A stretch of DNA of 64,000 nt from Dictyostelium discoideum (GCA_000004695.1 CM000153.2:2784001-2848000), one strand, 5' to 3'. Counted from the first letter of the stretch, positions 6,221 through 64,000 are shown. The notes: a model not told the origin generated them from the sequence alone. Made by a program: numbers and translations.

Positions 6221-6282
6221 ATAAATAAAATAAATAAAAAAAAAAAATTATTTTATTTTTTATACTAATTAGTATTTTATTA

Positions 6283-7622
6283 TCATTTTAATGGTTCTGG
6301 ATTATTAAAATGTGTTTGAAATCTATTAATTAATAAATTATTTGATTTTAATATTCTTGATATAAATGAACCAAAATTTAAATTTGAATTAATTTGAGTT
6401 AAACCATCTTTTGGACCTAGTGATAGACTAATGATTGGTGGTAATAATTTATGTTTTGCAAGTTGGTTTTTATTTTTACCATTTGATAAATCTTTTATAA
6501 CTTTAGCTACTATATTCCCATGTGAAAGTGCATTGTATGTGGTTTTAAGTTCATCAAAATCTGTAATATCACCAATTGCAAATATATTATCGTATCCTTG
6601 AACTTGACAACTTTGATTAACTTTAATTTGACCAATTTCATTAATTTCATTTGAAAAATTAGTTTTATAAGATTCACTATTTAATTTAATACCAATTGTC
6701 CAAATTACAAAATCAGATTCAATTGATAACCCATTTTTAGTTTTATATGTTTTTAATGAAACTTGAAAATTTGGTGATGTTTGATTAATAAAACATTGTT
6801 TTATATCATCTGGAATTTCAATTCTATCATTTAATATAACTGAAACGTTTCTTTTTTTCATAGATTCATTAATTAAATTATTGAATTTATTATTTGTTTT
6901 GGATGATACTAATTTATTACCACTATGAACAATCGTAATTTTCTTTGCCAATTCTTTGTTTTTAATTGGATATTTATTAATAATTTCTCCAACAACTTCA
7001 CAACCTACTGAACCACCCCCAACTATTAATATACTTTTAGCTTGTTTAATTTGTTCTGATATGTCTTTATAGTAATTAAAAATTTCAGTACCTGATATTT
7101 TTTCTAATGGTGCTTTAAAAGGTGCCAATGAATTTGAACCAGTTGCAATTACTAAATAATCAAATGTTAATTCTTTACCATCTTCTAATTTTACAAGAGT
7201 TGGTGAAATTTCAATAACTGTACCATAAATAAATTTACCATTTTTCAATAGTTTATCATATGGTATATATATTTTTTTTGCCAATTCTGGTTCAACTATT
7301 GCTCTTATTGATGCAATACTATTAAAAAATGTTTGTTTTCTTTCAACAACAGTTACTTCAAAATTTGAATCTAATAATTTTGCAACTTGGCTACCTCCAA
7401 AACCACACCCAATTATTAAAACTCTTTTCTTTTCACAATCTCTTGTAATACTACTAAAATAATTAAAAATCTCTATTAATTTAATTAAAATAATATAAAA
7501 AAAAAAAAATTAATTATCTATTTTTTTTTTTTTTTTTTTTTTTTTTATTAATTAAAACAAATTAAATAATTTAAATATATTTTACTTTTTAAAGATTCTG
7601 AAATATTATAAAGGTAATTCAT
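6283..7622 (-). CDS. AIF/AMID-like (AIFM2/FSP1-type) FAD-dependent pyridine-nucleotide-disulfide oxidoreductase, paralog 1. Tentative model join(7622..7586,7472..6283); 5' end uncertain.
   Basis: Colinear with the paralog at 10340..11503 from ..EKKRVLIIGCGFGG (Rossmann GxGxxG) to the C-terminus. The homologous ORF continues above the track's TTG start (7284) to ~7472 with no in-frame ATG, so it needs an upstream exon. The only candidate is ATGAATTACCTT...TTAAAAA|GTAAAA (7622..7586) joined to acceptor TTAATAG|AG at 7474/7473, which preserves frame. It could instead be 5'-truncated. Confidence 0.55.
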
Positions 7623-9144: not shown

Positions 9145-9312
9145 TAATAAAAATAAAATAAATTTGTCAAATGAGATTATGTTCGGAGCACTGAATCTGG
9201 AATACAGTAAAGTTTGCACCTAATTCCTCTGACGATAGAGGAGTGCAGATTGATAAGAATGTTGCTCAAATTAATTTGTATTCTGGAGTCTGAATAGGTG
9301 TTAAACTCGATG
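9145..9312 (-). ncRNA. Second, inverted copy of the candidate ncRNA (~170 nt; shares the 5' ~140 nt with the 8500 copy, then diverges; ends at T-runs). No DUSE upstream, so possibly a pseudo-copy.
   Basis: The reverse complement of 9228-9312 matches 8500-8583 at ~95%; similarity extends more weakly to ~9200. The 3' terminal ~55 nt recur at 63097-63160. Confidence 0.3.
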
Positions 9313-10339: not shown

Positions 10340-11503
10340 TTATTGGATTAAAGGTTTTGGATTATTTAATTGAGAAATATAACGATCAATAAATAATGAT
10401 TTTGATTTTATCATTTTTGTAGCAAAAGAACCAAGACACATAGTTGGACTGATTTGAGTTATACCATCTTGAGGACCTAATGAAAGACTAAGTATTGGAC
10501 CTGATACTTTATGTTTTGCAAGCTTATCATTACTTTTACCTTTAGATAAAGCATCGATTGCTTTTGCTGCAATTGCAGCATGATAGCCAGCATTATATGC
10601 TGTTTTAAATTCATCAAAATCTGTACAATCACCAATAGCAAATACATTATTGTATCCTTGAACTTGACAGCTTAAATTTACTTTTAATTGTCCAGACTCA
10701 TTGATTACATTTGAGAAATGTGATTGATATGATTCACTATTTGTTTTAATACCAACTGTCCAAATTATTAAATCTGCTTGAATTGGTACACCCTTTTCAG
10801 TTGTATAATTTTGTGATGATATTTGAATATTTGGTGAAGTTTGATTTAAAAGGTTAGCTTTAATTTCATCTGGCATTGTAATTCTATCATTTAATATGAC
10901 TTCAACATTTCTCTTTTTCATTGCTTTTGAAACGACATTTGTAAATTTATCATTCATTTTTGGATTCACTAATTTACTACCACTGTGAACAATTGTAATT
11001 TTCTTTACCAATTCTGAATCTTTAACTGGATATTTCTCTACGATTTCCGATACCAATTCACAAGCAACTGCACCACCACCAACTATTAATATACTTTTAG
11101 CTTGTTTAATTTGTTGTGAAAAGTTTTGGAAATAATTTAAAATCTCACTACTACTTTTCTTTTCTAATGGTGCTTTAAATGGTGCCAATGAATTTGAACC
11201 AGTTGCAATTACTAAATAATCAAATGTTAATTCTTGACCATCTTCTAATTTTGCAAGAGTTGGTGAAATTTCAATAACCGTGCCAAAAATAAATTTACCA
11301 TTTTTCAATAGCTTATCATATGGTATATAAATCTTTTTAACTAATTCTGGTTCAACAACAGCTCTAACAGATCCAACACTATGGAAAAATGTTTGTTTTC
11401 TTTCAACTACAGTTACATTAAATTTTGAATCTAATTGTTTTGCAACTTCACAACCACCATAACCACCACCAATTATTAATACTCTTTTCTTTTCTGATGT
11501 CAT
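10340..11503 (-). CDS. AIF/AMID-like (AIFM2/FSP1-type) FAD-dependent oxidoreductase, paralog 2, single exon, 387 aa
   Basis: MTSEKKRVLIIGGGYGGCE (FAD GxGxxG), a second dinucleotide motif ILIVGGGAVACE, and the C-terminal AIGDCTDF motif typical of the pyridine-nucleotide-disulfide oxidoreductase/AMID family. This is the intact tandem partner of the 6283 gene. Confidence 0.8.
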   Translation of the reverse strand: MTSEKKRVLIIGGGYGGCEVAKQLDSKFNVTVVERKQTFFHSVGSVRAVVEPELVKKIYIPYDKLLKNGKFIFGTVIEISPTLAKLEDGQELTFDYLVIATGSNSLAPFKAPLEKKSSSEILNYFQNFSQQIKQAKSILIVGGGAVACELVSEIVEKYPVKDSELVKKITIVHSGSKLVNPKMNDKFTNVVSKAMKKRNVEVILNDRITMPDEIKANLLNQTSPNIQISSQNYTTEKGVPIQADLIIWTVGIKTNSESYQSHFSNVINESGQLKVNLSCQVQGYNNVFAIGDCTDFDEFKTAYNAGYHAAIAAKAIDALSKGKSNDKLAKHKVSGPILSLSLGPQDGITQISPTMCLGSFATKMIKSKSLFIDRYISQLNNPKPLIQ

Positions 11504-45545: not shown

Positions 45546-46331
45546 CTTTATATTTTATAAAAAAAAAATAAAAAAATAAAAAAAAATAAAATGTGTCGGT
45601 TAATGGTTTTTTTTTTAAAATAATAAATTAGATATTTAAAAGAATTCCATAAAAAAGTCATTTTTTAAATATCTTTTTTTTTTAAAAAAATAAAAAAAAA
45701 AAGAAAATCACTTTTCTTTTTTTTTTTTTTTTTTTATTTTTTTTGTGTTCTTGAACCCCTGATTTAAAAGGATAATCATCCCAAATAATCACTTTTTTTT
45801 TTTCTAATTAAAAGTTAAATTAAAATTATTTTTTATTTTTTATTTTTTTTTAGAGTTGTAATTACATATTTGTAAAAAATGATTTTGTTGGAATGATTTT
45901 TCAGATATTAAACTTCTAATATTTAATTTATAAAAACTTCCCAAAATAGACTATAAAATTATTATTTGTTTGAAAATTCTCTTTCAAAAAAAATAAAAAA
46001 AAATAAAAAAATAAAAAAAAAAAAATAAAAAAAAAAAATGAAGATGAAGATAACGAAGATTATAATGATGAGGGTATACCAAAAAAATATTAAAACAATC
46101 AATTGATTGTTATATTTTAAAAATTTACAAAAAAAAGATAATTAATGATATCCCTTACTTATTTATACAAAATATTATTATTTTTTTTTATTTTTTTTTA
46201 TGTTATTTTTGTTTAACTACTTTGAGTTTTATCAACCCTAAAGTTTTTTCATTTTTCTCTTTTTTTTTCTTTCTTTCTTTTCTTTTCGTTTTGTGTTTAA
46301 TTTAAATCTATATTAATTATATTGTTGCTAT

Positions 46332-46877
<546 letters not shown>

Positions 46878-47141
46878 CTTTGTGTTTTATTATTGTTTTT
46901 ATGCGTAATGCTGAAAAAAAAAAAAAATAAAAAAAAATAAATAAATAAAAAATTAAAAAAAAAAAAAATGAAAAAAAAAGTGAAAATAAAAAAAAAAAAA
47001 AAATGAAAAAAAAAAAAAACTCTGATTAATCAAAAAAGCAAAAAAGTTGGACAAAAAATTTTTTTTTTATTTGTTTAAATTTATTTTTTTTATTTTATAT
47101 AATTTATTCTTTTTTTTTTTTCAAAACAATTTTTACTTTTT

Positions 47142-47384
47142 TTAAATTACAGAATTTGGATTCATATAAAATCTTTGATCTTTATTTAATTTATCCAAAC
47201 TATTAACTATATCATCAGATAGAGTGAAATCTAAGATCATTTGATTTTCAATCAATCTATGAACATTTTCAGTTTTTGGAATTACAGGGCAATTGTGTTC
47301 TAAACAATATCTTAATAATAATTGTGATGGTGTTCTTCCAACTTTTTTTGCAAATTCTTTAACACTTTCATTATTTAATAACTG

Positions 47385-47422
<38 letters not shown>

Positions 47423-48170
47423 AATAATCACCCACCCAACAACAATAATAATAATTTTTTTTTTTTTTTTATAAAAATTTAAAATTACTTACTCTACCAC
47501 CAGCTAAACTTCCATAACTTTCTAAAATTATTTTATTATTTTTACAAAATTCTAATAAATCTTTTTGAAAATTTAAAGGATGAAATTCAACTTGATTTAT
47601 TGCTGGTTTTATTTGTAAATTTGGTGATGATAAAAGTTCAGTTAAATGATTGATTGTATAATTTGAAACACCAATTGAACGTACTTTTTTATCTTGATAT
47701 AGTTTCTCTAGAGCTCTCCAGGTTTGAGCTCGTTGAATTGAATTACCACTATCACTACCATCCAATCCTTTTACACCAGGCCAATGAATTAAATAACAAT
47801 CTAAATAATCCAATTGTAACTTTTTCAAAGATGATTCAAATGCTTTTAAAGCATTTTCATAACCTTGCTCCATAAAACTACATTTACTAGTTATAAATAA
47901 ATCTTCTCTTTTTATCTTTTTACCATCTAATCCATCATTCTTTGTAACCATTTCATTTAATACTTTACCAATTCTTTCTTCATTATTATACATTGATGCT
48001 GTATCAATACGTCTATAACCATTCTCTAAACCAACTTTAATAATATTTTCAATATCATTTAATTTAAATGTTCCAATTCCTAACATTGGCATTTTAATTG
48101 GATTTAAATTTAATTCATTTAAAATTATAAAATTTTCATTTTCATTATTATTATTATTATTATTATTCAT
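47142..48170 (-). CDS. Aldo-keto reductase (aldose reductase-like), tandem copy 1. Model join(48170..47493,47381..47142), 306 aa.
   Basis: AKR catalytic residues and motifs (..LGIGTFK..IDTASMYNNEE..IHWPG..SIGVSNYTINHL..NQVEFHP..). C-terminal exon (..IPKTENVHRLIENQMILDFTLSDDIV..) after donor AGA|GTAAGT and acceptor AATCCAG. Confidence 0.75.
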
Positions 48171-48494
48171 TTTTTTTTATTTTTTATTTTTGAATTTAAT
48201 AAGAGATAGAATTTGTGTGTGTGAGTGTGTTTTATATGTTATTAAAAAATAAAAAAAAATAAAAAAAAGAAAATAAATCAATTTATATAAAAAAAAAAAA
48301 AAAAATAAACACAAAAAAAAAAAAAATAAACACTAAAAAAAAAAAAAAATAAATAAAAATTATAAAAAAAACAAATTCAATTATTACCAAAAAAAGTTAT
48401 TTTTTTTTTATTTTTAGCTTTTTAGGTTTATTTATTTTTAGCTTTTTTGGCTTTTTCTATTTTTAGCTTTTTTTACTTTTAGCTTTTTTAATTT

Positions 48495-49497
48495 TTAGTT
48501 AACATTACTTGGGTCCCAATAAAATCTTTTATTTTTATTTAAATGATTTAATTTTTGAATATCTTCATTTGAAATTGTAAAATCTAAATTTGAATTTTCA
48601 TATACTCTTTCAGGTTTAATTGATTTTGGAATAACGACTAAACCATTTTGAATAGCCCATTTCAATAAGACTTGAGCAGGTGATTTTGAAAGTTGTTTTG
48701 AAATTTCCAATACTACAGGCTCAGTTAAGATCTCATTACCACCAGAGAGACTGCCATAAGCCTCCAATACGATGCCATTTGATTTACAGTAATTTAAAAG
48801 CTCCTCTTGGAAAAGGTATGGATGGAACTCGACTTGATTCATCACTGGTTTAATTCTACAATTTGATAATAGTTCATGTAAGTGCGATATGGCGTAGTTG
48901 GAAACACCGATAGAACGAACTTTACCATCGTCGTAAAGTTTCTCCAAAGCTTTCCAAGTTTGAGAACGTAGTGAACTCATGCTTTCACCTTTAGGTATTT
49001 CACTATATGTGCCTGGGTAATGAATTAAATAACAATCTAAATAATCCAATTGTAATTTCTCTAATGATTCTTGAAATGCTTTCAATGCATTCTCATATCC
49101 ATGTTGCCAAGTACCAACTTTGGTTGTAATAAATAATTCCTCTCTCTTTACTTTACCTTCTTTAATTAATTCTTTAATTGTATCACCAATCTTTTTTTCA
49201 TTTTTATAATAAGATGCTGTATCAATATGTCTATAACCTAAATTTTTTTTTTTTTTTTTTTTTTTTTTCAATGAAAATAATTAATAATTAATATATTAAT
49301 TATATTTTTAAAAAATTGCTTTTTTTTTTATTTTTTAAAAAAAATAATTACTAACCTTGTTCAATTGCAGATCTTACAGATTTTTCAATATCACTATCAT
49401 CGGTTAAATAAGTTCCTAATCCGATAACTGGAATTTTAATACCATTATTTAATTGAATTGTTGATTTAATAGATTCTGACATTATTTTTTTAATCAT
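48495..49497 (-). CDS. Aldo-keto reductase, tandem copy 2. Model join(49497..49356,49237..48495), 294 aa.
   Basis: N-terminal exon MIKKIMSESIKSTIQLNNGIKIPVIGLGTYL...SAIEQ + G|GTTAGT; the acceptor TTTAG joins GYRHIDTASYYKNEKKIG... The track's poly-K N-terminus is intron/poly-A read-through. The C-terminus is contiguous, with no C-terminal intron. Confidence 0.75.
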
Positions 49498-49890
49498 TAA
49501 AAAAAATTTAAATAAATTATTATTATTATTATTATTAATATTACTATTGGTGAGTGTTTATAAAAAATAAATTAATTTTTTTTTTTTTTTTTTATTCAGG
49601 GTGTGGTCCTATTTATATTAAATTTTTACAAAAAAAAAAAAAAAAAAAAAATAAAATTGAAAAAATAAAAATCTTTTTTTTTCAAAAGCATTTCGATGTT
49701 TCGAATGTTCTTCTTTTTTTAAAAAATAATTGTTTTTTGTTTTTGTTGTGTGTCAATATAGAGAAGTGAGTTGGAGAATATTTTTTTTTTTTTTTTTTTA
49801 AAGAACTACAGTCTAAAAAAATTTTCTATTTTTTAAATTTAAAAAATTCTTTATTTCTTTTTTTTACTTGTTTTTTTATTTTATTTTTTT

Positions 49891-50847
49891 TTAAAGAACT
49901 ACAGTTGGATCCCAACAAATTCTTTTTTCATTGCCCATAGAATCTAATTTTTCCATAATTTCATTTGGAATTTCAAAATCATATAATGAACAATTTTCTT
50001 TAATTCTTTCCGAGTTTGTTGATTTTGGTATAACTACAATACCTTTTTGTAATGCCCAACGAAGCATTAATTGTGCTCTAGTTTTACCTAAAGATTTTGC
50101 ATATTCTACAATAAGATCATCATTTAATTTCTAAATAAAAATAAAACTAAATTAATAAATAATTTTTTTTTTAAAAAAAAAAAAATAAAAAATAAAAAAA
50201 TAAATAAAATTTACTTCACCACGAGTTAATGAAGAATAAGCTTCTAAAATTATATGATTTTTTTTACAAAATTCAAATAAATCTTTTTGATATAAGAATG
50301 GATGAAATTCAACTTGATTTACAGCTGGTTTAATTTGTAAATTTGGTGATGATAAAAGTTCAGTTAAATGATTGATTGTATAATTTGAAACACCAATTGA
50401 ACGTACTTTTTTATCTTTGTATAATTGTTGAAATGCTTTCCAAGTTTCAGCACGAGCTTCTGAATTCTTTGGTGAAGAAGGTTGATTACCAGCTTGACCA
50501 GGCCAATGAATTAAATAAAGATCAACGTAATCCAATTGTAATCTCTTTAAAGAGTTATTACATGCTTCAATTGCTTTATCATAACCATGTTCACTTGTAC
50601 TTGATTTCGTAGTAATAAATAAATCTTCTCTCTTTATTTTACCTTCTTCAAATATCTTTTTTAAACAATCACCAATCGCTTCCTCTTGTCTATAAGATGA
50701 AGCTGTATCAATTAAAATATATCCATTATCAATTATTGCTTCTCTTAAAACTCTTTCCATATCAATTGATTTAATTTGATATGTACCAATACCAAATAAT
50801 GGCATTTCAATACCATTATTTAATTTAATTTTTGATTTTATATTCAT
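49891..50847 (-). CDS. Aldo-keto reductase, tandem copy 3. Model join(50847..50215,50130..49891), 290 aa.
   Basis: MNIKSKIKLNNGIEMPLFGIGTYQ...SLTRGE|GTAAAT; acceptor TTATTTAG then KLNDDLIVEYAKSLGKTRAQLMLRWALQKGIVVIPKSTNSERIKEN...CWDPTVVL. Same C-terminal intron position as copy 1. Confidence 0.75.
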
Positions 50848-50987
50848 TATTAATTTTTTAAAAAAATAAAATAAAATAAAAAAATAAAAAATTAAAAAAA
50901 TGAAAAAAATAAAAAAAAAATAAAATAAAAAATAATTTAATTTAAAAAAATAAATATTTCCATTATTATTTGAAATTTATTTGAAAT

Positions 50988-51396
50988 TTATAAACCTTTA
51001 TTATAAATAAATTCTTTAATTATATTACCATTTTTATCTTTAATATTTCTAAATTGTGGTTCTAATGAATCTGCAGAAATTGTTGATTCTTGTGGGAATA
51101 AAGCAATGGCGGCAGGTAAAGATGTATTAAAGATTGCTGCTATGACTGCTAAATTTAAAGGCATTCTAACTTTTGGATATTTTTTAACAAATGAAGTTCT
51201 TTCAAATAATCCCATTACAATTGGTGGTAATAATAATGCTGGAAATGATGTTGCTGCTCTTGAAAATGCAACTTTATAAACTGCTGATTTACCTGCTTCT
51301 TTACTCTTTCCATGAATTACACCATCTTTATCTTTAATATCAATACCATTACTAAAAATATTAATTTGTGTTTAATTAAATTAAATTATTAATATT

Positions 51397-51435
<39 letters not shown>

Positions 51436-52314
51436 AATAATAATACATACACCATTTCATTACCTCTCATAATTAAAACATTTGCAATACCAGCTGATGT
51501 TACAGCAGTGAATGGTACCATCATTCTAAGAGCACTTGAGATTGTTTTATTTTGAATATTTAATTTATTTACACCCCAACCTAAACCAACTGCTAATGAA
51601 CAAGAGATACCAACTGCACTTGCATAAGCTTCTAAAATTTGTTTATTTGACATTGTATTACTTGCATTTCTATTGGCATGATTTAATGCTATATTATATG
51701 ATTGATTAATCCATTGCCAAAATATAGTTGTACCAATTGATGCATTTGGTAAAATTAAACCTGCACAAATTATAACATTAATTGGTAAAAATGCTGAAAC
51801 ACGAAATGGTAAAAATATTGGTTTACCTGTATCTGGATGAATTGTTGAATCCAAAACTTAATTTAAAAAATAAAAAAATAAATAAAAAAAAAATTAATAA
51901 ATTAGTTTTCTTTTTTTTTTTTTTTTTCTTTTTTTTTTTTTTAAAAATTAAGTTTCCTATTTACTTTTTTTTGCTTTCCATAATTCATCTGAATGCTTTA
52001 CTGGGTCAACTAAACCTTTTTTAAAATTATCTAATAATGTTTTTGATTGACTTAAATCTTTTTCTGTTGCAAATAATGTAGATGGATCAGTAATATCTCT
52101 AAAATTTTGATATCTACCATAAAATGTATTATTATCATATTTGTTTGAAACTATATTTTGATTTTTTTAATAAATATATGAATATATGAATCATTTTAAA
52201 AAATGATGATGAATTAAACAGATTAATGATTTGTTTAAATTATTTATTTTTTTTTTAATTTTTTAAAAAAAAATACTAACCACCGTCAAATACAGGAAAA
52301 GAATTTGATGTCAT
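50988..52314 (-). CDS. Sideroflexin (mitochondrial tricarboxylate/serine carrier family). Model join(52314..52281,52150..51965,51856..51451,51351..50988), 329 aa.
   Basis: Matches human SFXN along the full length (..LWKAKKILDSTIHPDTGKPI.. vs ..[20 protein letters not shown]..; ..FWQWINQSYNIALNHANRN..; the last four residues are NKGL, as in SFXN). Exon 1 MTSNSFPVFDGG is 34 nt. Donors GTTAGT/GTAAAT/GTATGT; the acceptor of intron 2 is a non-canonical-looking AAG. Confidence 0.75.
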
Positions 52315-52986
52315 TTTTTTTTTTTTAGAAATAAAAATACCTTATATATTTATAAATTTGTTTTTTTGATCAAACACTTATGTGAGGGAAAAAAAAAAAA
52401 AAAAAAAAAAAACATGAAAAAAAAAAAAAATTATCGTTTTTTTGAAATTTCAAAATTTTATGAGCTTTCGCAAACCAGGAAAAAAAAAAATAGGGTTGTT
52501 ATTAAAATATTAAAAATTTAAAATTTTATAAAAAAATAATGTTTTGAGATTTGTAAGTTGTTAAAAAAAATACCAAAAAATTAAAAAAAAATTAAAAAAA
52601 AAATTTAAAATTAAAAAAAGAAAAATTAAAAAAAAATTTTTCTGATTAGATATTTTTAAAAAAAAAAAAATTAAAAAACGCAGTGGTGTTAAAAAAATTA
52701 TTTTTAATATTTTTTTTTTTTTATGTTTGTATTTATTTTTAATCACAAAACAACTCTTTGTATTTTTTTTTTTTATTTTTTTATTTTTTTTTTTCTCTAA
52801 ACAAAATTTTCTGTTCTTTACTTTTATATTTAAATTGTAAGAGTTTTTTCAATCTCATGACTATCCATAATTTTTTAATCTTTCTTGACTTTTTAATATG
52901 TGTTTAATTAAATTTTTTTTTTTTTTTTTTTTTTATTTTATTTTTTTTTTTTTCAAAACAAAATTTTTTGTTTTTTACTTTTATAT

Positions 52987-55374
<2,388 letters not shown>

Positions 55375-55432
55375 CGTTCATTCTAAAAATAAATAAAGTT
55401 TTTTTTTTTTCTCGAAAATTAATTAAATTTTG

Positions 55433-55471
<39 letters not shown>

Positions 55472-55512
55472 GGTAATAAAATAAAAAAATAATTATAAAT
55501 CCACTTTTTTTA

Positions 55513-55552
<40 letters not shown>

Positions 55553-55924
55553 TTTTTTTTTTTTATTATTTTTTATTAGTTTTGGATTATTAAAAAAAAA
55601 TATCTTTAATGTTTTAAAGATTGATAATTTTCTCCTTTAATTTAATTTACTGTTAACAATTTAAAATAATATATATAAATTTCAATAAATTATTCTCTTT
55701 TTAAGAAATTAATTTACCATTCAAAAAAGAAACAAAATTATGTCGTGATTTCAATTCATTTCTTTTTTATTTGCGAAGATTTTTTTTTATTTAATAATAA
55801 TTAATAAATTTTAATTTTTTTTTTTTTTTTTTAATTTTTTTTTTTTTTTTTTCTTTTTAATTTTTTATTTTATTTTATTTCATTTTCAAAATATTGGTAT
55901 AATAAAAAAAAAAAAAAAAAAAAA

Positions 55925-56710
55925 ATGGTATCAAATTTATTTCAAGTTAAAGATAAAATTATATTAGTTACTGGAGGTGGTAGTGGTATAGGATATGGTA
56001 TTTCATTAGGATTTGTAAAGAATGGTGCAAAAGTTTATATTTGTTCAAGAGATTTTGAAAAATGTAAGAAAACAGCAGAAGAATTAACAAAGATTGGACC
56101 AGGAAAATGTATAGCAATTAAAGCAGATTTATCGAAATTGAGTGATATTAAAAATTTATTTGAAGAATTCTCAAAATATGAACAGTCATTGGATTGTTTA
56201 GTTAATAATTCAGGTGCAAATTGGGGTGAAGAATTAGAGAAATATCCAGACCAAGCATGGGATAAAGTTATGAATTTAAATGTTAAAGCTGTTTTTAATA
56301 CAAGTGTTGCAGCATTACCATTCCTAAGAAAGAATGCAACCTCACAAGATCCTTCAAGAATTATTAATATTGGTTCAATCGATGGTATTAGAGTACCACG
56401 TTTAGAAACTTATGCTTATTCAGCAAGTAAAGCTGCCCTTCATCAGTTAACTAGAACTTTAGCCGATAGATTAGCACCTGAACATATTCTAGTCAATGCA
56501 ATCGCTGCTGGTCCTTTTATGTCTAAAATGACTAAACAAACTTTTACACAATTTGAGGATTTGGTCAAATCTAGTGTTGCCACTGGTAGATTTGGTAATA
56601 ATGAAGATCTTGAAGGTTTATTGGTATTTTTAACTTCAAGAGCTAGTACTTATATAACTGGTGCTATTATTCCTTTGGAAGGTGGTGTTTTAATTAAATC
56701 AAATCTTTAA
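55925..56710 (+). CDS. Short-chain dehydrogenase/reductase (SDR; 3-oxoacyl-ACP reductase-like), 261 aa, single exon
   Basis: TGGGSGIGYG cofactor motif, NNSG, catalytic YxxxK (YSASKAAL), ..IPLEGG.. C-terminus. Confidence 0.8.
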   Translation: MVSNLFQVKDKIILVTGGGSGIGYGISLGFVKNGAKVYICSRDFEKCKKTAEELTKIGPGKCIAIKADLSKLSDIKNLFEEFSKYEQSLDCLVNNSGANWGEELEKYPDQAWDKVMNLNVKAVFNTSVAALPFLRKNATSQDPSRIINIGSIDGIRVPRLETYAYSASKAALHQLTRTLADRLAPEHILVNAIAAGPFMSKMTKQTFTQFEDLVKSSVATGRFGNNEDLEGLLVFLTSRASTYITGAIIPLEGGVLIKSNL

Positions 56711-57023
56711 AAAAAAAAAAAAAAAAAAATAAATAAATAGTGTTTTTGTAAATTACTTTTAATATGTACCAAAAATAAAGAATTAAAACCATTGTATGAA
56801 AAAGGGTATTTTTATAATAATTAAAACATTTAAACTTTTAATGAGATTTTTTAAATTTTTTGAATCATAAAGCAAAATTTTTTTTTTTTTTTTAATAACA
56901 TCACTCAATTTGAGTGTGTTCTAGGAGAGTTTATTTGTAGTTTTTTTTTTTTTTTTTTTTCTTGTCATTCTTATATAAAGCAAAATAGACTCGGGGTTAA
57001 AAAAATTCAAAAATATCCAATAA

Positions 57024-57095
57024 TCCTTGTTGGTCTAGTGGTGAGGATTTTCGCCTGTCACGCGAAAGGCCCGGGTTCAATTCCCGGACAGGGAG
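57024..57095 (+). tRNA. tRNA-Asp (anticodon GUC)
   Basis: TCCTTGTTGGTCTAGTGGTGAGGATTTTCGCCTGTCACGCGAAAGGCCCGGGTTCAATTCCCGGACAGGGAG: cloverleaf with anticodon loop CTGTCAC, T-loop GGTTCAATTCC, 7-bp acceptor stem, discriminator G. Confidence 0.85.
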
Positions 57096-57105
57096 CTTTT
57101 TGAAA

Positions 57106-60100
57106 ACTCACTCGAAATCCGAAGTTCCGGTTTCTAACTTCATTCAAATAAATTTTTAAAAAAATGAATTTTTTCGATAAACTTAAAGGTGAACTCAACT
57201 TAGGCGAAGAAGAGTTAAATAAAAAAACTATTCAAATAAGGTTATTCTACCCACATACCTTGGAATTAAATAGTAATTCAACAAAATTAATAGATAATTT
57301 CATAGTTAATGGTACTCTTAACATTGTCAGAAGACAAAAGGGTATAACAGTATTCGGTAGAATACTAAAAGAAAAATTCACATTATTACACGAGTGTTAC
57401 AGCACTTTCAAGTATGAAGATTTCCCACTGCAAAAATTCATACTTTACACCCCAGGATATCACTATGTCCACTTTTACACATTTATCTGAAAGAAACACC
57501 TTCATAATCAACTCAAAATCTCTGTTTAAAAAATATAATTCAATCAACCATCAAATAATAGCAGGCGACTTCAATAACAACCACGATTGCAACAGCTTCT
57601 TCGGTACTGAATTACGTAAAATAATAGACCAAGACATGCTACTAGATACTGGTATTGAAGAAAACACTCCAACATTTCCAAGATCAATGAAGAGACTAGA
57701 TAGAATCTACTGTCATCCAACACTACTAAACCAAAATTCAAAACTGGTAGTCCACAACACAGTATTTAACAAATCAGATCACTTTCCCATCACAATCACA
57801 ATACAAACCAACAGAGAAACAACAACAACAACAACAACCAAACTAGAAAGACTCCCTTGGACATTATGTAAAGAAATTCTCAACAACAAACATATACATG
57901 ATGGGTTATCAGAATTAATCAGTAAGAACAAAGATAAGATCAAATCAGTGGAGGAATGGACGAAATTTAAAAATAATGTCATCAGAGATTATTTAAAAAA
58001 AGAACAAAACAAAATAAAGAAAGAAAAGAACAAAAGAAAATACGTAATCCACAAATTACTTGGAAATTGTGATATCATTCCAAAGATGAGAAAAGAACTC
58101 AATGAAGAAATAAGTAGAATATTAGAAGAAGAAAGAAAGGTAAAAGCATGGGATATCAAATTAAAACTCCACCTGCATCAAGAAACACCAAGCAAATACC
58201 TCACAAGTATCCTTAAATCCAGAGCCAAAGATAAATCAATATTCCAAATAAAAGATAAAGATAATAAGACCATATCAGATAAAGAGAACATAGCAAAAAG
58301 ATTTGTTGAATTCTATCAAGATCAATATGAAGAGAAAGAAGATAACGAAGAAACCCACAAGAAGTTATTAGAAAAATGGGAAGTAGACGTTGATTTAATC
58401 AAGAAACTCGAGATAGACAGACCGATAAGAATACATGAAGTGACCAAAGCAATCAAAACTTCAAGTATCCACAAATCTCCAGGTTTAGACGGTATCAATG
58501 CACTATTCTACAAGTACCACATCAACTCAATAGCAAGAATATTGACTATAGCTTTCAACGACCTCCTCACAAATAAGAAAGAAATCCCCACAAAATTCAA
58601 AGAAGGAGTAATAACAACAATATTCAAAAAAGGAGATGAACTAAACATTTCAAATAGAAGACCAATCACCCTTCTCAATACAGATTACAAAATTTTAAGC
58701 AAAATTCTCAACAGTAGATTATTAGATATCACCAGTAAAATTATCAACAAATTTCAAAACGGCTTTGTTCCAAACAGGTTCATCCAAGACAATATTCAGA
58801 TCATGAAGGAAGTAATAGAAATAAGTAACAAAAGAAAGAACAATACACTCATTACCTTTTACGATTTTAACAAAGCATTCGATTCAATCAGCCACAAGAG
58901 TATCACAAGAACATTAGAGCATATTGGTATCCCCCCAAAATTCACAGCGATCCTACTAAACCTACTCAAAGATACTAAAAACAAAATAAAGATCAACGAC
59001 TTTTTAGTCAATGGAATAACAATCAGAAGAGGAACAAAACAAGGAGACCCAATATCACCAACAATCTTTGCTCTAGTTTTAGAACCACTTCTAATAGATA
59101 TCATCAATGATAATACAATCAAAGGCTTCACTCTACCAAATTCCAAATCATTAAAACTCACTGCATTTGCTGACGACATAGCAACATTTACAAACTCCAC
59201 TGAAGAACTAATGAAAATTAATACTAAAATCCAAAAGTACTGCTCAGCAACATCATCATCGTTAAACAAAGAGAAAACAGTAATGATAGCAATAGGAGAT
59301 ATACCACACGATCTACCATTCCAAGAGAGTACAGTCCCAGAAAGATATCTTGGCCTCAATTTCACCAAAACAGGTTTAAATTCAAAATACAACACTTTAA
59401 TCCAAGAAATGAAAAACAATCTAATCAAATGGAAATCACAAGCAATAACGATGAAGGCAAAGATGACAATTCTCAAAACATACGTTCTATCCAAATTAAC
59501 ATACCATCAATACATGGATAATCTAAATGAAGAACAAATTGAGGAAATCAATAACATGACCAGATGGTTCTTATTCTCCTCAGTTAAGAATACATATACA
59601 AAAGAGAGAAAATACAAAACTATGATGAAAATAGACAGAGCATATGCAGATTGGAAAGAAGGAGGCATAAAATTATGGGATATAGAACTAAGACATATAG
59701 CATTCAAAATCTGGTACATGAACAGGCTACTCCATAACAACTACAACAACAACAACAATACCTTACAAGAATGGTACATGGAGCAATTAAGTAGAAAAAA
59801 AGCCCACACTTCAACCCTCAACGATATGTGCAGACACTGGGGTGTATTCAGAGTCAAATTTTACCAAAACCATCCAAAGATAAATGAACTTCCAGACTGT
59901 ATAAGAAACGACAATGACGAACCACTAAAACTAAAAGAAATTTACGAACTCATGATCAAAGACAGACACCCAACACCAAGAAGAACAGAATGGCAGAAGT
60001 TATGGGCGGTGAGATACAACACAGCAATACCCAAAGTATTCATAAACATCAACAGCATTTCTCACCAAAAAGGTAGAAACACCCTCTTCAGATTCTTCTC

Positions 60101-60601
60101 AAGATCACTTCCAGGTATCAACCACGAAAGAGACACCAGATGCAAGATCTGTGGCCACCTATTCAGAGACCCTTATTCTCACCTCTTCACTCTATGCCAA
60201 GATATCCTAGATATTGAAAAAACCATCATATCAACAGTTAACAAATTATCATTCATCAAAATCCACAGATGGTCAATGGATACCTTAGACATATCAAAAT
60301 ACAACAGAACTGAGAGAATCTTCCCCAATCTCATAGGAATAATAGCACACCAATTATGGAAGATAATCTGTCACAAATTGTTCAACACTGATGAAAGCAA
60401 ACCAGAGCCAAAATTCGAGCAAAAGGTCATAGAAACAGAATTACTAAATCTCATCGAAACTGAAAAATTCATCACACTAAAGAAAATCAAACACGACGAA
60501 GCAATACTAAAAAACACCAATCAAGATCTTCACAAATACAAATTCAACAAAGCCTGGCAAACCCCAGTAGTTCCGAACCCTCTTCCAATTTAAGTAGTAG
60601 T

Positions 60602-60628
<27 letters not shown>
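57106..60628 (+). mobile_element. TRE3-type (tRNA-gene-targeted, downstream-inserting) non-LTR retrotransposon, ~3.5 kb, likely 5'-deleted. ORF1 remnant 57164..57490; ORF2 57414..60593 (APE endonuclease + reverse transcriptase); 28-nt poly-A tail 60601..60628.
   Basis: Starts directly downstream of tRNA-Asp in the same orientation. ORF2 has AP-endonuclease motifs (..IIAGDFNNNHD..) and RT motifs (..FYDFNKAFDSISH.., ..FADDIATFT..) and ends in a cysteine/His-rich region. The poly-A terminus is typical of TRE/LINE elements. The antisense ORF 58859..59494 is spurious. Confidence 0.75.
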
Positions 60629-60637
<9 letters not shown>

Positions 60638-61440
60638 GTTAAAAAATTTAATACAATTGAATAATAAAAATAAAATCGTTTAACAAACACCGCCGAAAAG
60701 ACACAAGGACATTCCTTGAAGGTCTGATCACAGGTAAAAAAAAAAAAAAAAATTCAAATAAATTTTATAGGGTATTCCGATTCACTTTGATCCTGATATA
60801 TTTGAGGAGGTAATCAGTGTCGATGGGTGATAAGGTGCTGGTCTATTTGCTTCTTATTCAAACTCAATATCTAAAAATCTAGATGATAATCTTTTTCTTG
60901 AATTGATTTTGCCAACTTTTGTGGAACGGGAAGGATTGAATTTGTTTCTGATGCGTTTATGAATTGGTTAATCACCAGAGTGTTTTCCCTCTGGTCAATG
61001 TTTTTTAAATATTGATTAAGGGAAATAAATAAAACAGTTATTAATAGGTTTATTATGAATTGTTAATTATTTAAAATACAATTATAATTTTAGTTAGGTT
61101 TAAATGCAGATATTATATTAGTTTAGATAATCTAATACAGAATTTTAATCTTTTTTAAAAAAGAAAATGTTATTACTATTATTATAAGTATTCTGATATT
61201 TTTTTTTTTTTTTTTTATACAATTTTAAATTTTAATAAATAAATAATTAAATAATAATTTTTTGGTTAAGGAAATCGTTTGGATCTTTTGAAATATTCTA
61301 TTTAAAAAAGTTTTTTTTTTATTTTTATTTTCAATAGTTAAAGTTTATGATAAATATTAATTAATAAATAGGTTTATTTAATAAATTTTAATTTTTAAAA
61401 TGAAGATATTATTTTAGTTAAGATTTTCCTGTTTTTGTGG

Positions 61441-61640
61441 ATGCATTTTTTTTTTTTTTTTTTTTTGATATAAATAAACTATTGTAGTATACAATTAGTA
61501 TGTTATTTTTATTTATTTATTTTAGGTTTTTTAGTTTTTGTGAATTTAAAATAGTATGTTATTTTAGATTAGGTAATTAATAATTAATTGGTGGTGTAAT
61601 TGTTGGAATTGGTTCATTTGCGTTTATGCTCCATTCTTTT
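61441..61640 (-). repeat. ~200-bp repeat module ending in an oligo-A tail, directly downstream of the inverted tRNA-Asp copy; second copy at 63601..63800 (~97% identical)
   Basis: 61441-61640 and 63601-63800 are near-identical direct repeats. On the minus strand the module starts next to the tRNA 3' flank (AAAAAAGAATGGAGCATAAACGCAAATGAACC..., resembling the 5' start of the TRE element at 57150) and ends in A17 (plus-strand T-run at 61441-61458). Confidence 0.6.
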
Positions 61641-61702
61641 TTAAATTTTTTGGATGCATTTAGAAAATCGGAACTTCGGATTTGTAGGGATTTTTCAAAA
61701 AG

Positions 61703-61774
61703 CTCCCTGTCCGGGAATTGAACCCGGGCCTTTCGCGTGACAGGCGAAAATCCTCACCACTAGACCAACAAGGA
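61703..61774 (-). tRNA. tRNA-Asp (GUC), second copy in inverted orientation
   Basis: The reverse complement is identical to the 57024-57095 gene. ~30 bp of 5' flank and ~55 bp of 3' flank are also duplicated, and the 5' flank+stem fragment (attcaaaaatatccaataatccttgttggt) occurs a third time at 61850-61880. Confidence 0.85.
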
Positions 61775-62033
61775 TTATTGGATATTTTTGAATTTTTTAA
61801 CTCCAAGTGGATTTTTTTGGACAAATGCCTAAAAAATTAAGTGAAAAATTCAAAAATATCCAATAATCCTTGTTGGTATTGTGGATAAAACTTAAACACA
61901 AAAAAAAAAACAATTCAAATATGTCATCAACATCAATCATGAAGCTGATGATAAAATAAAAAAAGATTTAGAAAAAAATTTGGACAAAAAAGATGTTTTA
62001 ATCAAAAGTAATAATACAATTCAAAATTCGAAA

Positions 62034-62061
<28 letters not shown>

Positions 62062-62069
<8 letters not shown>

Positions 62070-62440
62070 CTAACCCCTCTTTTAGAGACCCTGTAAAAAA
62101 AAAAAAAAAAAAAAAACTAAAAATAAAATGAGATCTAGCATCTCAAGGAGAAGCAACTAATAATTGCGTTATCCAATTCAAAAAAAAAAATGGATTTTTT
62201 TTCCTATTAAAAGACTTATAAAACAAATAAATAAATAAATAAATAAACTATTTTAAAAAGCCATCTTTTTACTTTATTGTAATTTATTATTTGTTTCGTT
62301 TTGAAAAAAGTAAACTAACCCTCTTTTAGAGACCCTGTAAAAAACTACAAATAAAATGAGATCTAGCATCTCTAGGAGAAGCAAATAATAATTGCGTTAT
62401 CCAATTCAAAAAAAAAAAATGGATTTTTTTTCTTCAATTT
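62062..62440. repeat. Two direct copies (~145 bp each, 62062-62215 and 62297-62440) of a module (..gtaaactaaccctcttttagagaccctgtaaaaaa..aaataaaatgagatctagcatctc.aggagaagcaa.taataattgcgttatccaattcaaaaaaaaaaatggatttttttt) upstream of the inverted tRNA-Asp. Probably a retroelement (TRE5-type) 5'-module remnant.
   Basis: Direct repeat read from sequence. Position (upstream of a tRNA gene) fits TRE5-type targeting, but I cannot confirm element identity without a repeat library. Confidence 0.4.
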
Positions 62441-62881
62441 AATTAAAAAATCGATTTTTTTTCATTTTTTGTTAATTTTTAATTTTTTTCATTTCCTGCA
62501 TCTTTTTATATTCGACAATACCAAGAATGAATTTTCAAAAATATTTTCTTAAACAACCAATCATGTTTTGGGCATAAAAAAGCTCAATGATTTTACAAAT
62601 TAGTTATAATAAAAATCACAAAGAATGAAATCAGTGATAATGGTGTTGGTGATAATAAAGAGATTAATATAACATTCATATATAAATAATATATAATGAA
62701 CAAGATAAATATTATAACAATTTCTAAATTTAATTTCAAATCAAACAGAATGGCCTACCACGGCAAACTTAATACCTACACTCATTTCCCCGATCCTTAA
62801 TTAATAGTTTTTTTATGGATTTTAATTTTAAAAATTAAGAAGTTATCCCTATTTTAGTATAATTATTATTTTTGATATTAT

Positions 62882-62925
<44 letters not shown>

Positions 62926-63096
62926 TGATTTCTCCTTTAAAGGAAATAAACAATAATTAATAGTTTTATTTAGAGATTTTAACTTTATTTTGTAATTCAG
63001 TTTTTCTATTTTGGTTTGAATTTTAAAAAAAGCAATTTAATTTTAAAATAGTGTTGTTGGTTTTGTTATTATTATTATTTATTTATTTTTTTTTAT

Positions 63097-63160
63097 ATGA
63101 ATTGGTCGAATGAGATGAGATTCGGCAGCACTGATTCTGGAATACAATATACTTTGCAAG
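63097..63160 (-). other. Partial third copy of the 3' ~55 nt of the candidate ncRNA at 9145-9312
   Basis: aatgagatgagattcggcagcactgattctggaatacaatatactttgcaag vs 9169-9222 aatgagattatgttcggagcactgaatctggaatacagtaaagtttgca (~80% identity), then diverges. Confidence 0.3.
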
Positions 63161-64000
63161 TTAGTTTTCTTAGTTTGATTATTTGTAAATGGAAATATTT
63201 TGGGTCGTTAAAATTACTTGGATCTTTTGAAAGAGATAATTTTAAGTCTTTTGTTTTTTTTAAATATTCTAGGATTCCTAGTTTGTACCATTTATTAAGT
63301 AAGATCGAGTATGAGAGGTTTTCATCTTTAGACGGTTAATTGCTATAAAATTGCGTCCAGATGTTAACGAAGTATTCTTATTGGAATCTAAGGTTTGTTT
63401 TTTTTTTTTTTTTACCTAAAAGCGGTGTATTGTTATATTTTATTACATTTTTAAATTTTTAGATTTTTAAATTTTTAAATTTTTATATTGTTATATGTTG
63501 ATATTTTTGGTTATATTATGATTACTACTACTTGTTTTTTGAATCTAAGGTTTGTGCATATAGAAACACTAAAAAATTAAAATTTAATTTACCAATTAGA
63601 TTTTTTTTTTTTTTTTTTTGATATAAATAAACTATTGTAGTATACAATTAGTATGTTATTTTTATTTATTTATTTTAGGTTTTTTAGTTTTTGTGAATTT
63701 AAAATAGTATGTTATTTTAGATTAGGTAATTAATAATTAATTGGTGGTGTAATTGTTGGAATTGGTTCATTAGTGTTTATGCTCCATTCTTTTTTAAATT
63801 TTTTGATGGTTTCGGACCATTGGGTTTCTTTTTGAGTTTTTGTGAGGTTGTTTTTAATTGAGAATTGGTTAAAGTTTGATAACCTTCTTGAATATTCCAA
63901 TCTTATTAGCTTGTGCCATTTTGATTTTAATATATCATAATCTAGNNNNNNNNNNNNNNNNNNNNNNNNNNNNNNNNNNNNNNNNNNNNNNNNNNNNNNN

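Follow-up and report, generated by a model that had tools for sequence, protein, structure and literature searches.

A tRNA gene cluster of Dictyostelium discoideum as a very probable recurrent target of TRE5 and TRE3 non-LTR retrotransposons

We analysed a 64-kb stretch of Dictyostelium discoideum DNA (the window; all coordinates are window-relative unless one of the comparison loci L001-L012 is named) around two tRNA-Asp(GUC) genes and the repeats beside them. The region is very probably a tRNA-gene cluster, composed of tRNA-Asp(+), tRNA-Asp(-) and, past a gap of Ns in the reference, tRNA-Phe(-), which has been repeatedly targeted by TRE5 and TRE3 retrotransposons without long terminal repeats (non-LTR). 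The tRNA genes were called with ARAGORN over the window, with Rfam as a second method; ARAGORN found exactly two, both tRNA-Asp(GTC). The TRE5 copies lie 44-49 bp upstream of tRNA genes in the opposite orientation and the TRE3 copies 51-60 bp downstream in the same orientation, and each of the three tRNA genes (Asp+, Asp-, Phe-) has TRE5 upstream and TRE3 downstream. All mapped insertions end in a poly(A) tail and are flanked by perfect target-site duplications of 9-15 bp, and most are 5'-truncated. The duplicated words occur only at the expected two or three positions across the 64 kb; therefore, the repeat pattern is not a matter of chance. Repeated hits at the same site appear as tandem copies, with one duplicated word standing three times upstream of tRNA-Asp(-). 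These distances, orientations, tails and duplications bear out the proposal, made in a preliminary description from the sequence, that retroelements use the region as a landing zone, with position-specific retrotransposition at its tRNA genes. The species is supported by the retroelement proteins, which are 99% identical to D. discoideum proteins, and by the neighbouring SDR gene, which is DDB_G0285033. The tRNA genes and the insertions closest to them are as follows.

56879-56974, minus strand: 5'-truncated TRE5 3' fragment with a tail of A16 (a T-run on the plus strand), between 12-bp duplications ATAAAGCAAAAT at 56867-56878 and 56975-56986
57024-57096, plus strand: tRNA-Asp(GUC), copy 1 (ARAGORN; Rfam tRNA, 61 bits)
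57115-57134, plus strand: conserved 3'-flank motif AAATCCGAAGTTCCGGTTTC, a putative degenerate external B box (cross-species flank comparison)
57157-60751, plus strand: TRE3-type non-LTR retrotransposon of 3595 bp, between 15-bp duplications ATTCAAATAAATTTT at 57142-57156 and 60752-60766
61447-61650, minus strand: 5'-truncated 204-bp TRE3 3' end with a tail of A21, between 9-bp duplications TGGATGCAT at 61438-61446 and 61651-61659
61664-61683, minus strand: the same 3'-flank motif downstream of copy 2 (flank comparison)
61702-61774, minus strand: tRNA-Asp(GUC), copy 2 (ARAGORN; Rfam tRNA, 61 bits)
61819-62190, plus strand: TRE5-A insertion 1, between duplications TGGATTTTTTT (61808) and TGGATTTTTTTTC (62191)
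62204-62419, plus strand: TRE5-A insertion 2, an A-module piece, a C-module and A12, followed by the third duplication copy at 62420-62432
63589-63945, minus strand: 3' part of a long TRE3 copy running into the gap, with the left duplication TTACCAATTAGA at 63589-63600

What TRE proteins recognise on a tRNA gene is its RNA polymerase III transcription complex, upstream through TFIIIB and downstream through TFIIIC bound to the B box or to an external B box; integration proceeds by target-primed reverse transcription. At the present locus, TRE5 would thus have inserted upstream via TFIIIB and TRE3 downstream via TFIIIC, and repeated targeting of one site by TRE5-A would have produced the tandem insertions beside tRNA-Asp(-). 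Szafranski 1999 and Glockner 2001 are reportedly the works to name for TRE3-A/B/C/D as tRNA-gene-targeted non-LTR retrotransposons. The published position rules put TRE5 44-54 bp upstream in the opposite orientation and TRE3 40-150 bp downstream in the same orientation (PMC5911963); the distances and orientations found here match these rules, which supports the assignment to TRE5 and TRE3. TRE3 and the other tRNA-targeted elements of Dictyostelium have been reviewed (PMC5006619, PMC5911963), and tandem arrays from sequential targeting are reported in the supplement of PMC5006619. The literature puts the share of occupied tRNA genes at 61% and that of tRNA genes with both families at 13%.

A TRE3-type element had been placed just 3' of the plus-strand tRNA-Asp gene, and it is indeed found there. 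It has the orientation of tRNA-Asp(+) and starts 60 bp downstream of that gene, at a site that is empty in L004 (L004 and L005 are the orthologous tRNA-Asp loci in two other D. discoideum assemblies), and its duplication (57142 and 60752) is perfect and found nowhere else in the window. The element was compared with a second copy in L001, a locus of a second D. discoideum assembly that also holds a TRE5-type element. The L001 copy shares the orientation of a tRNA-Phe gene, lies 89 bp downstream of it and directly behind the external B box GTTCGACTCCC, and has its own 17-bp target-site duplication. The comparison gave the following parts.

57164, plus strand: start of open reading frame (ORF) 1; the element begins at, or just ahead of, the ORF1 ATG
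57484/57485, plus strand: internal deletion of 874 bp relative to L001
to 60593, plus strand: ORF2 remnant with the end of the endonuclease, the reverse transcriptase and a CX2C..HX4C zinc knuckle
60602-60628, plus strand: internal run of 27 A (A27)
60629-60735, plus strand: tail of the 3' untranslated region (UTR)
60736-60751, plus strand: poly(A) (A16-17)

In both copies the ORF2 stop is followed by an A-run, then by a tail of 124 nt and only then by the true poly(A). This comparison and the 15-bp duplication indicate that the element ends at 60751 and that the A-run, earlier taken for the end of the element (60601-60628), is internal. Such internal A-runs were seen in TRE3 between ORF2 and the tail (in L001 at 10436-10461) and in TRE5-A between ORF2, B-module and C-module (L012 6267-6305 and 6602-6640). 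The ORF at 57414-60593 matched the Pfam domain RVT_1 with an E value of 2e-36, and a zinc knuckle, CKICGHLFRDPYSHLFTLC, lies C-terminally at ORF2 residue 910. Exo_endo_phos was matched only at profile positions 146-225 of 225 (24.8 bits against a cut-off of 24.5), corresponding to the last third of the endonuclease. Consequently, from an ORF2 described as carrying both APE and reverse transcriptase, the latter was confirmed and the former only in its last third. This ORF2 is 99% identical to an intact 1147-amino-acid D. discoideum ORF2 (P0001), which has the full endonuclease. The window copy lacks 874 bp (L001 8323-9196), with ORF1 codon ~106 fused to ORF2 residue ~103; as this deletion joins ORF1 to the last third of the endonuclease, the copy is dead. 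Database names of the TRE3 ORF2 matches read 'hypothetical protein'. The full length of the element was reconstructed as 4469 bp. Among the published consensus lengths of TRE3-A (5229 bp), TRE3-B (5279 bp) and TRE3-C (4734 bp) (PMC5006619 Table 1), that of TRE3-C is the nearest, and we name no subfamily. Fragments of the same family also occur downstream of tRNA-Asp(-) in D. citrinum. Downstream of the tRNA-Phe gene in L001 (10739-10870), three long A-runs are separated by two occurrences of the word CTTCATACCCAACTATATTTTC, in what resembles a further stack of minimal poly(A) insertions with a common target-site duplication.

Two further TRE3 copies account for what was first described as a 200-bp module that begins like a TRE 5' end, ends in A17 and recurs 2.16 kb away. 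The repetition was confirmed (205 nt, 61448-61652 and 63601-63805, 99% identical at a spacing of 2153 nt), whereas the module proved to be a 3' end from a second TRE3 family, with a tail of A21, and its likeness to the 5' end of the large TRE3 consists of shared tRNA flank and A/T-rich sequence. The copy at 61447-61650 is oriented like tRNA-Asp(-), and its 5' end falls 51 bp downstream of that gene; L004 has an empty site here. On the minus strand from 63945 to 63601, the other copy reads as an ORF2 C-terminus, 3' UTR and A19. In a gap-free assembly this ORF continues, with 99.4% identity to GenBank AAD43057 ('pol', D. discoideum) and an internal deletion. The 1115-amino-acid annotated product of the large element was reconstructed and used to extend the gap-free locus. 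The gap-spanning TRE3 measures 4761 bp with an ORF2 deletion of ~134 amino acids, the intact length being about 5.2 kb. Its tRNA-Phe-side end bears the second copy of TTACCAATTAGA; the 5' end of the element directly follows the external B box GGTTCGACTCTC, at a distance of 52 bp downstream from tRNA-Phe(GAA)(-). On the other side, 46 bp upstream of this tRNA-Phe (L011), stands a 181-bp TRE5-A 3' fragment flanked by AGAATATATTA. The gap in the reference thus conceals about 4.4 kb, namely the rest of the TRE3, then tRNA-Phe and the TRE5-A fragment. The cluster to which the copies at 61447-61650 and from 63601 into the gap belong has the most AX4 copies among the TRE3-like clusters; hence, both are probably TRE3-A, with the AAD43057 record being unnamed and TRE3-B (5279 bp) also fitting.

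The TRE5 fragment at 56879-56974 has its 5' end 49 bp upstream of tRNA-Asp(+) in the opposite orientation and is missing from L004 (a 102-bp difference). It is 91% identical to the 3' end of the TRE5-type element in L001, which lies ~42 bp upstream of tRNA-Phe in the opposite orientation and whose 5' A/B region is 80% like TRE5-A. When the L001 element was tested against L012, a full-length TRE5, neither a 3' B-module nor a C-module was found. The fragment therefore appears to be of the TRE5-B type, by likeness to the L001 element and not to a named reference. A reading of the L001 element as a TRE5-A with a C-module 3' end was dropped after this test of B-module duplication.

Beside tRNA-Asp(-), the insertions belong to TRE5-A, formerly called DRE. 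The L012 element lies 46 bp upstream of another tRNA-Asp gene, with the duplication CAAATGATTTTCA and a 200-bp A-module. A second copy of its B-module stands in the 3' UTR (1268-1595 matches 6265-6596; 332 bp, 98.8%), and its terminal module is ~130 bp long. By definition, TRE5-A has the B-module duplicated into the 3' UTR and then a C-module of ~134 bp as its 3' end (PMC3159450), and L012 is accordingly a TRE5-A. Window 61894-62190 corresponds to the 3' B-module and C-module of L012, 62197-62307 to the A-module (window pieces 80-92%) and 62308-62445 to the C-module plus a further 26 nt of a similar tRNA-Asp upstream flank. Two copies of a module of ~145 bp had been noticed in 62062-62440. They are present at 62059-62203 and 62304-62432 (85.6% identical), and from the alignments to L012 they are the C-modules of two tandem TRE5-A insertions. 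The word TGGATTTTTTT, which occurs in the 64 kb only at 61808, 62191 and 62420, brackets these two plus-strand poly(A)-ended insertions. Insertion 1 starts 44 bp upstream of tRNA-Asp(-) in the opposite orientation, and TRE5-A also sits 46 bp upstream at tRNA-Phe (L011) and at the tRNA-Asp of L012. The A-module piece of insertion 2 is 87% identical to L012 1043-1151. Insertion 1 is divided as follows.

61819-61877, plus strand: candidate inverted target copy, comprising flank -47 to -1 and tRNA nt 1-11
61878-62179 and tail, plus strand: 3' B-module part (61878-62034), then A30, the C-module (62065-62179) and A11

Two other readings of the units at 62065-62440 were considered and dropped, because in L012 the unit is the terminal module of a full TRE5-A. 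One took them for the TRE5 A-module (70% to 199-bp repeats in L001) and was ruled out by L011 and L012; the other took them for ancestral Asp-Phe spacer found only at the orthologous spot, and the L011 unit lies upstream of tRNA-Phe with its own duplication. In the L012 element (992-993) and in insertion 1 (window 61819-61820), GG follows directly after the target-site duplication, which fits the extra guanosines described at the 5' junctions of complete integrations (PMC3159450).

The 5' junction of insertion 1 has an unusual structure. A third partial copy of the tRNA-Asp 5' flank and first 10 nt had been noticed at 61850-61880; the copy is present at 61844-61884 (95% to 57001-57041), includes 11 nt of the tRNA rather than 10 and lies inside the TRE5-A insertion. 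On the plus strand from 61819, the sense upstream flank of tRNA-Asp (-47 to -1) is followed by tRNA nt 1-11 and then by the B-module, joined at GGT|ATTGT. The tRNA-derived part thus consists of flank plus 11 nt, the next 7 nt are TRE5-A B-module, and the two apparent mismatches of the partial copy are B-module bases. The partial copy and the genuine flank of tRNA-Asp(-) make up a near-palindrome of ~128 nt whose centre, at about 61822-61826, coincides with the integration point; folded as DNA, it reaches -42 kcal/mol (z = -11). The hairpin is present in a second assembly, and the partial copy was not found at the orthologous spot in L004, L005 or the D. cf. discoideum locus L006. Our tentative reading, to which we give slightly less than even chances, is that, in the course of the TRE5-A integration, an inverted copy was made of 58 nt of the target (the flank and tRNA nt 1-11) and was joined to the truncated element at a short shared motif. 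During target-primed reverse transcription, synthesis would have switched onto the target DNA, copied the 58 nt inverted and then joined the truncated TRE5-A. If this is true, the junction is a footprint of the reverse transcriptase, or of a second-strand primer, switching onto nicked target DNA. In the literature searchable here, we found no description of an inverted target copy at the 5' junction of a TRE element.

Separately, window 61757-61884 contains a 41-bp stem (95%) with inner pairing, a strong hairpin directly upstream of tRNA-Asp(-) that could be a source of small RNA. Rfam searches of 61743-61884 gave only sub-threshold hits resembling microRNA precursors (42-46 bits against gathering scores of 83-180); these and a Phe-leader hit were rejected as generic hairpin matches far under the gathering scores. 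A 10-bp repeat, TTTGGACAAA (61816 and 61979), was rejected as a duplication around the partial tRNA copy, its second copy being B-module sequence.

Several points weigh against the picture given so far. The stretch 62433-63383 is largely without identity, and the middle duplication copy at 62191 also resembles A-module sequence, so that one complex event may have taken place rather than two sequential ones. The subfamily names rest on the unnamed GenBank 'pol' AAD43057 (99.4%) and on published consensus lengths, and the reconstructed 4469 bp exactly fits none of 5229, 5279 and 4734 bp. Finally, the inverted copy and the present flank do not agree over the distal 24 nt, where a 5-nt indel and a few substitutions set them apart; this is unexpected for a fresh copy. 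This divergence favours another origin of the partial copy, as the remnant of a third tRNA-Asp gene that stood head-to-head with copy 2 and was destroyed by TRE5-A landing inside it. Such an origin is unlikely, however, since L004, L005 and L006 all lack a third copy at this position, and the partial copy lies inside the interval bounded by TGGATTTTTTT, with its outer end at the canonical -44 of copy 2, where the near-perfect palindrome is also centred. The B-module junction at the short shared GGT/ATTGT motif likewise speaks against it, and we know of no TRE5 insertion within a tRNA gene.

The two tRNA-Asp copies themselves were described as duplicated in inverted orientation together with their flanks, and this was confirmed by a 186-nt alignment at 90% (56982-57166 against 61815-61632). 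The copies are 100% identical from -24 to about +10 and ~80% similar from there to roughly -45 and +45. Such extended identity, covering the gene and 24 nt of 5' flank, could be taken to mean that the second gene, with its flanks, arose by inverted segmental duplication after retrotransposition at a single tRNA-Asp gene, as the preliminary description proposed. We regard this as very improbable. Orthologous loci were located through the SDR gene, and the synteny of six flanking genes was checked, which speaks against mis-assigned paralogous loci. The tRNA-Asp pair is present at the syntenic site in 7 other assemblies from 5 taxa, those other than D. discoideum being D. firmibasis, D. cf. discoideum, D. 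citrinum and D. dimigraforme. Convergent pairs without the present insertions occur in D. firmibasis (1083 bp apart, with clear external B boxes), in D. cf. discoideum (in the order Asp(+), Asp(-), Phe(-)) and in the two D. discoideum assemblies L004 and L005, which lack the flanking TREs. The latter have unbroken sequence at all three insertion sites flanking the pair, and their tRNA-Asp genes are 805-809 bp apart compared with 4605 bp here; subtraction of the insertions with their duplications, 4605 - (3595+15) - (204+9) = 782, matches that spacing. As the pair is shared with other species and the sites are empty in two D. discoideum assemblies, the pair is ancestral, and the insertions are later and polymorphic. 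In addition, the homology ends at about -45 and +45 and contains no retroelement sequence, and the two copies are flanked by elements of different families, each with its own duplication.

The shared 3' flank has a different explanation, for it contains a motif, AAATCCGAAGTTCCGG, that is kept across species (AGTTCGGATCC in D. dimigraforme; GGGTTCGACCCC and AGTTCGACTCCGG in D. firmibasis) and that we read as a degenerate external B box (ex-B; concept in PMC5911963). In L006 (17055-17123), the 3' flank of tRNA-Asp(-) consists of tandem aaaatcact units instead of this conserved motif. The 5' flanks (56964-57023 and 61775-61834) are closer to each other within a haplotype than to their equivalents in L004 and L005, and both L005 copies share aaatattatcaaaaatatcc in the 5' flank. 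This pattern is a signature of gene conversion and suggests that conversion extends about 25-45 nt past the tRNA-Asp gene. We infer that the conserved external B box and gene conversion together account for the similar flanks of the two copies.

A further rearrangement concerns the sequence between the two genes (window 57097-61701, compared with L004 11080-11884 and L005 11079-11887).

60767-61437, no strand assigned: ancestral spacer between the tRNA-Asp genes, inverted relative to two other D. discoideum assemblies

Spacer 60879-61441 aligns to L004 11710-11133 in reverse at 79.5%, and the 3'-flank types ccggttt and ccgattt are swapped between this haplotype and L004/L005. The reversed spacer and the swapped flank types point to a flip, in one lineage, of the segment between the inverted tRNA genes; recombination between the two tRNA-Asp copies would have inverted the intervening spacer in this haplotype. 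Searches of 60753-61447 by blastx and tblastn against all transposable-element proteins revealed no coding remnant, and a protein search with a 138-amino-acid ORF from L004 gave no match. In D. citrinum and D. dimigraforme (L007 11136-12335, L008 11360-12730, L009 11376-16188), both tRNA-Asp genes are on the minus strand and form a direct pair; set against the convergent pairs of D. discoideum, D. cf. discoideum and D. firmibasis, this indicates that one gene was inverted during species divergence.

That repeats collapsed or were mis-joined by the gap, making the second tRNA-Asp, the hairpin-like copy or the modules unreal, was another suggestion, prompted by a region that adjoins the gap and is rich in repeats and homopolymers, and it is hardly credible at all, because a second chromosome-level assembly without Ns here is collinear with window 46000-63945 (17,946 nt, 99.7%, 10 mismatches, 11 gaps), contains the hairpin and the modules too and extends across the gap. 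The differences between the assemblies are mostly in homopolymer lengths, and the second assembly fills the gap; on this comparison, the tRNA/retrotransposon arrangement is evidently real and not an assembly error.

To the right of the TRE5-A insertions, two smaller poly(A)-terminated fragments were mapped.

62884-62990, minus strand: poly(A)37-terminated retroelement 3' fragment, 83.5% to a poly(A)-ended piece downstream of another tRNA-Phe gene (L001)
63399-63540, minus strand (63384-63555 with duplications): 142-bp poly(A)-terminated fragment with the 15-bp duplication GAATCTAAGGTTTGT

Both ends of the latter resemble the 3' UTR of the large TRE3. The haplotype-specific sequence of 62433-62883 and 62991-63383 (~850 bp) had no match to transposable-element proteins, other loci or Rfam, and blastx and tblastn of 62400-63620 against all transposable-element proteins gave no coding remnant. 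Permissive blastn and tblastx matches were mostly A/T-rich low complexity and were set aside. A coding-like similarity was observed between 63096-63173(-) and 9157-9233(-) (82% DNA identity over 62 nt), with the shared peptides ..CK[VL]YCIP[ED]SVL.. and PN[LI]ISFD[QK]FI. The latter segment lies in the region 3' of the ORF 10340-11503(-), and the similarity is not to TRE protein; 63096-63173 could represent a fragment of a gene or else a retrocopied 3' end.

The biology of this locus is already known and fits knowledge of TRE5 and TRE3 throughout, the fold-back 5' junction and the tRNA-mediated inversion being minor curiosities. Its significance for new biology is slight; it is a textbook case of tRNA genes as safe landing sites for TREs in a gene-dense genome. 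For annotation, internal A-runs in TRE 3' UTRs can pass for element ends, and common external B boxes with gene conversion can pass for segmental duplication. The insertion polymorphism and the flipped spacer may interest work on TRE activity and on tRNA-gene-mediated rearrangement in wild isolates.

Compared with known systems, the TRE3 copies share with their family the two ORFs, the ORF2 order of endonuclease, reverse transcriptase and zinc knuckle, the poly(A), the 5' truncations and the target-site duplications. They differ in nothing of kind; the large copy is deleted, and the internal A27 of its 3' UTR mimics an element end. Likewise, the TRE5 insertions resemble TRE5-A and TRE5-B in lying 44-49 bp upstream in the opposite orientation and in forming tandem arrays from repeated targeting, and they follow the TRE5-A architecture of A-, B- and C-modules with the B-module repeated in the 3' UTR. 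They depart from TRE5-A in that the 5' junction of insertion 1 bears what reads as an inverted 58-nt copy of its own target and that insertion 2 is an A-module-to-C-module deletion derivative. The 5' junction anomalies of L1-type elements (twin-priming inversions, template jumps and extra nucleotides) provide a further parallel, with a complex 5' junction and microhomology in a 5'-truncated, poly(A)-tailed and duplication-flanked insertion, whereas the inverted segment here is target DNA and not element sequence.

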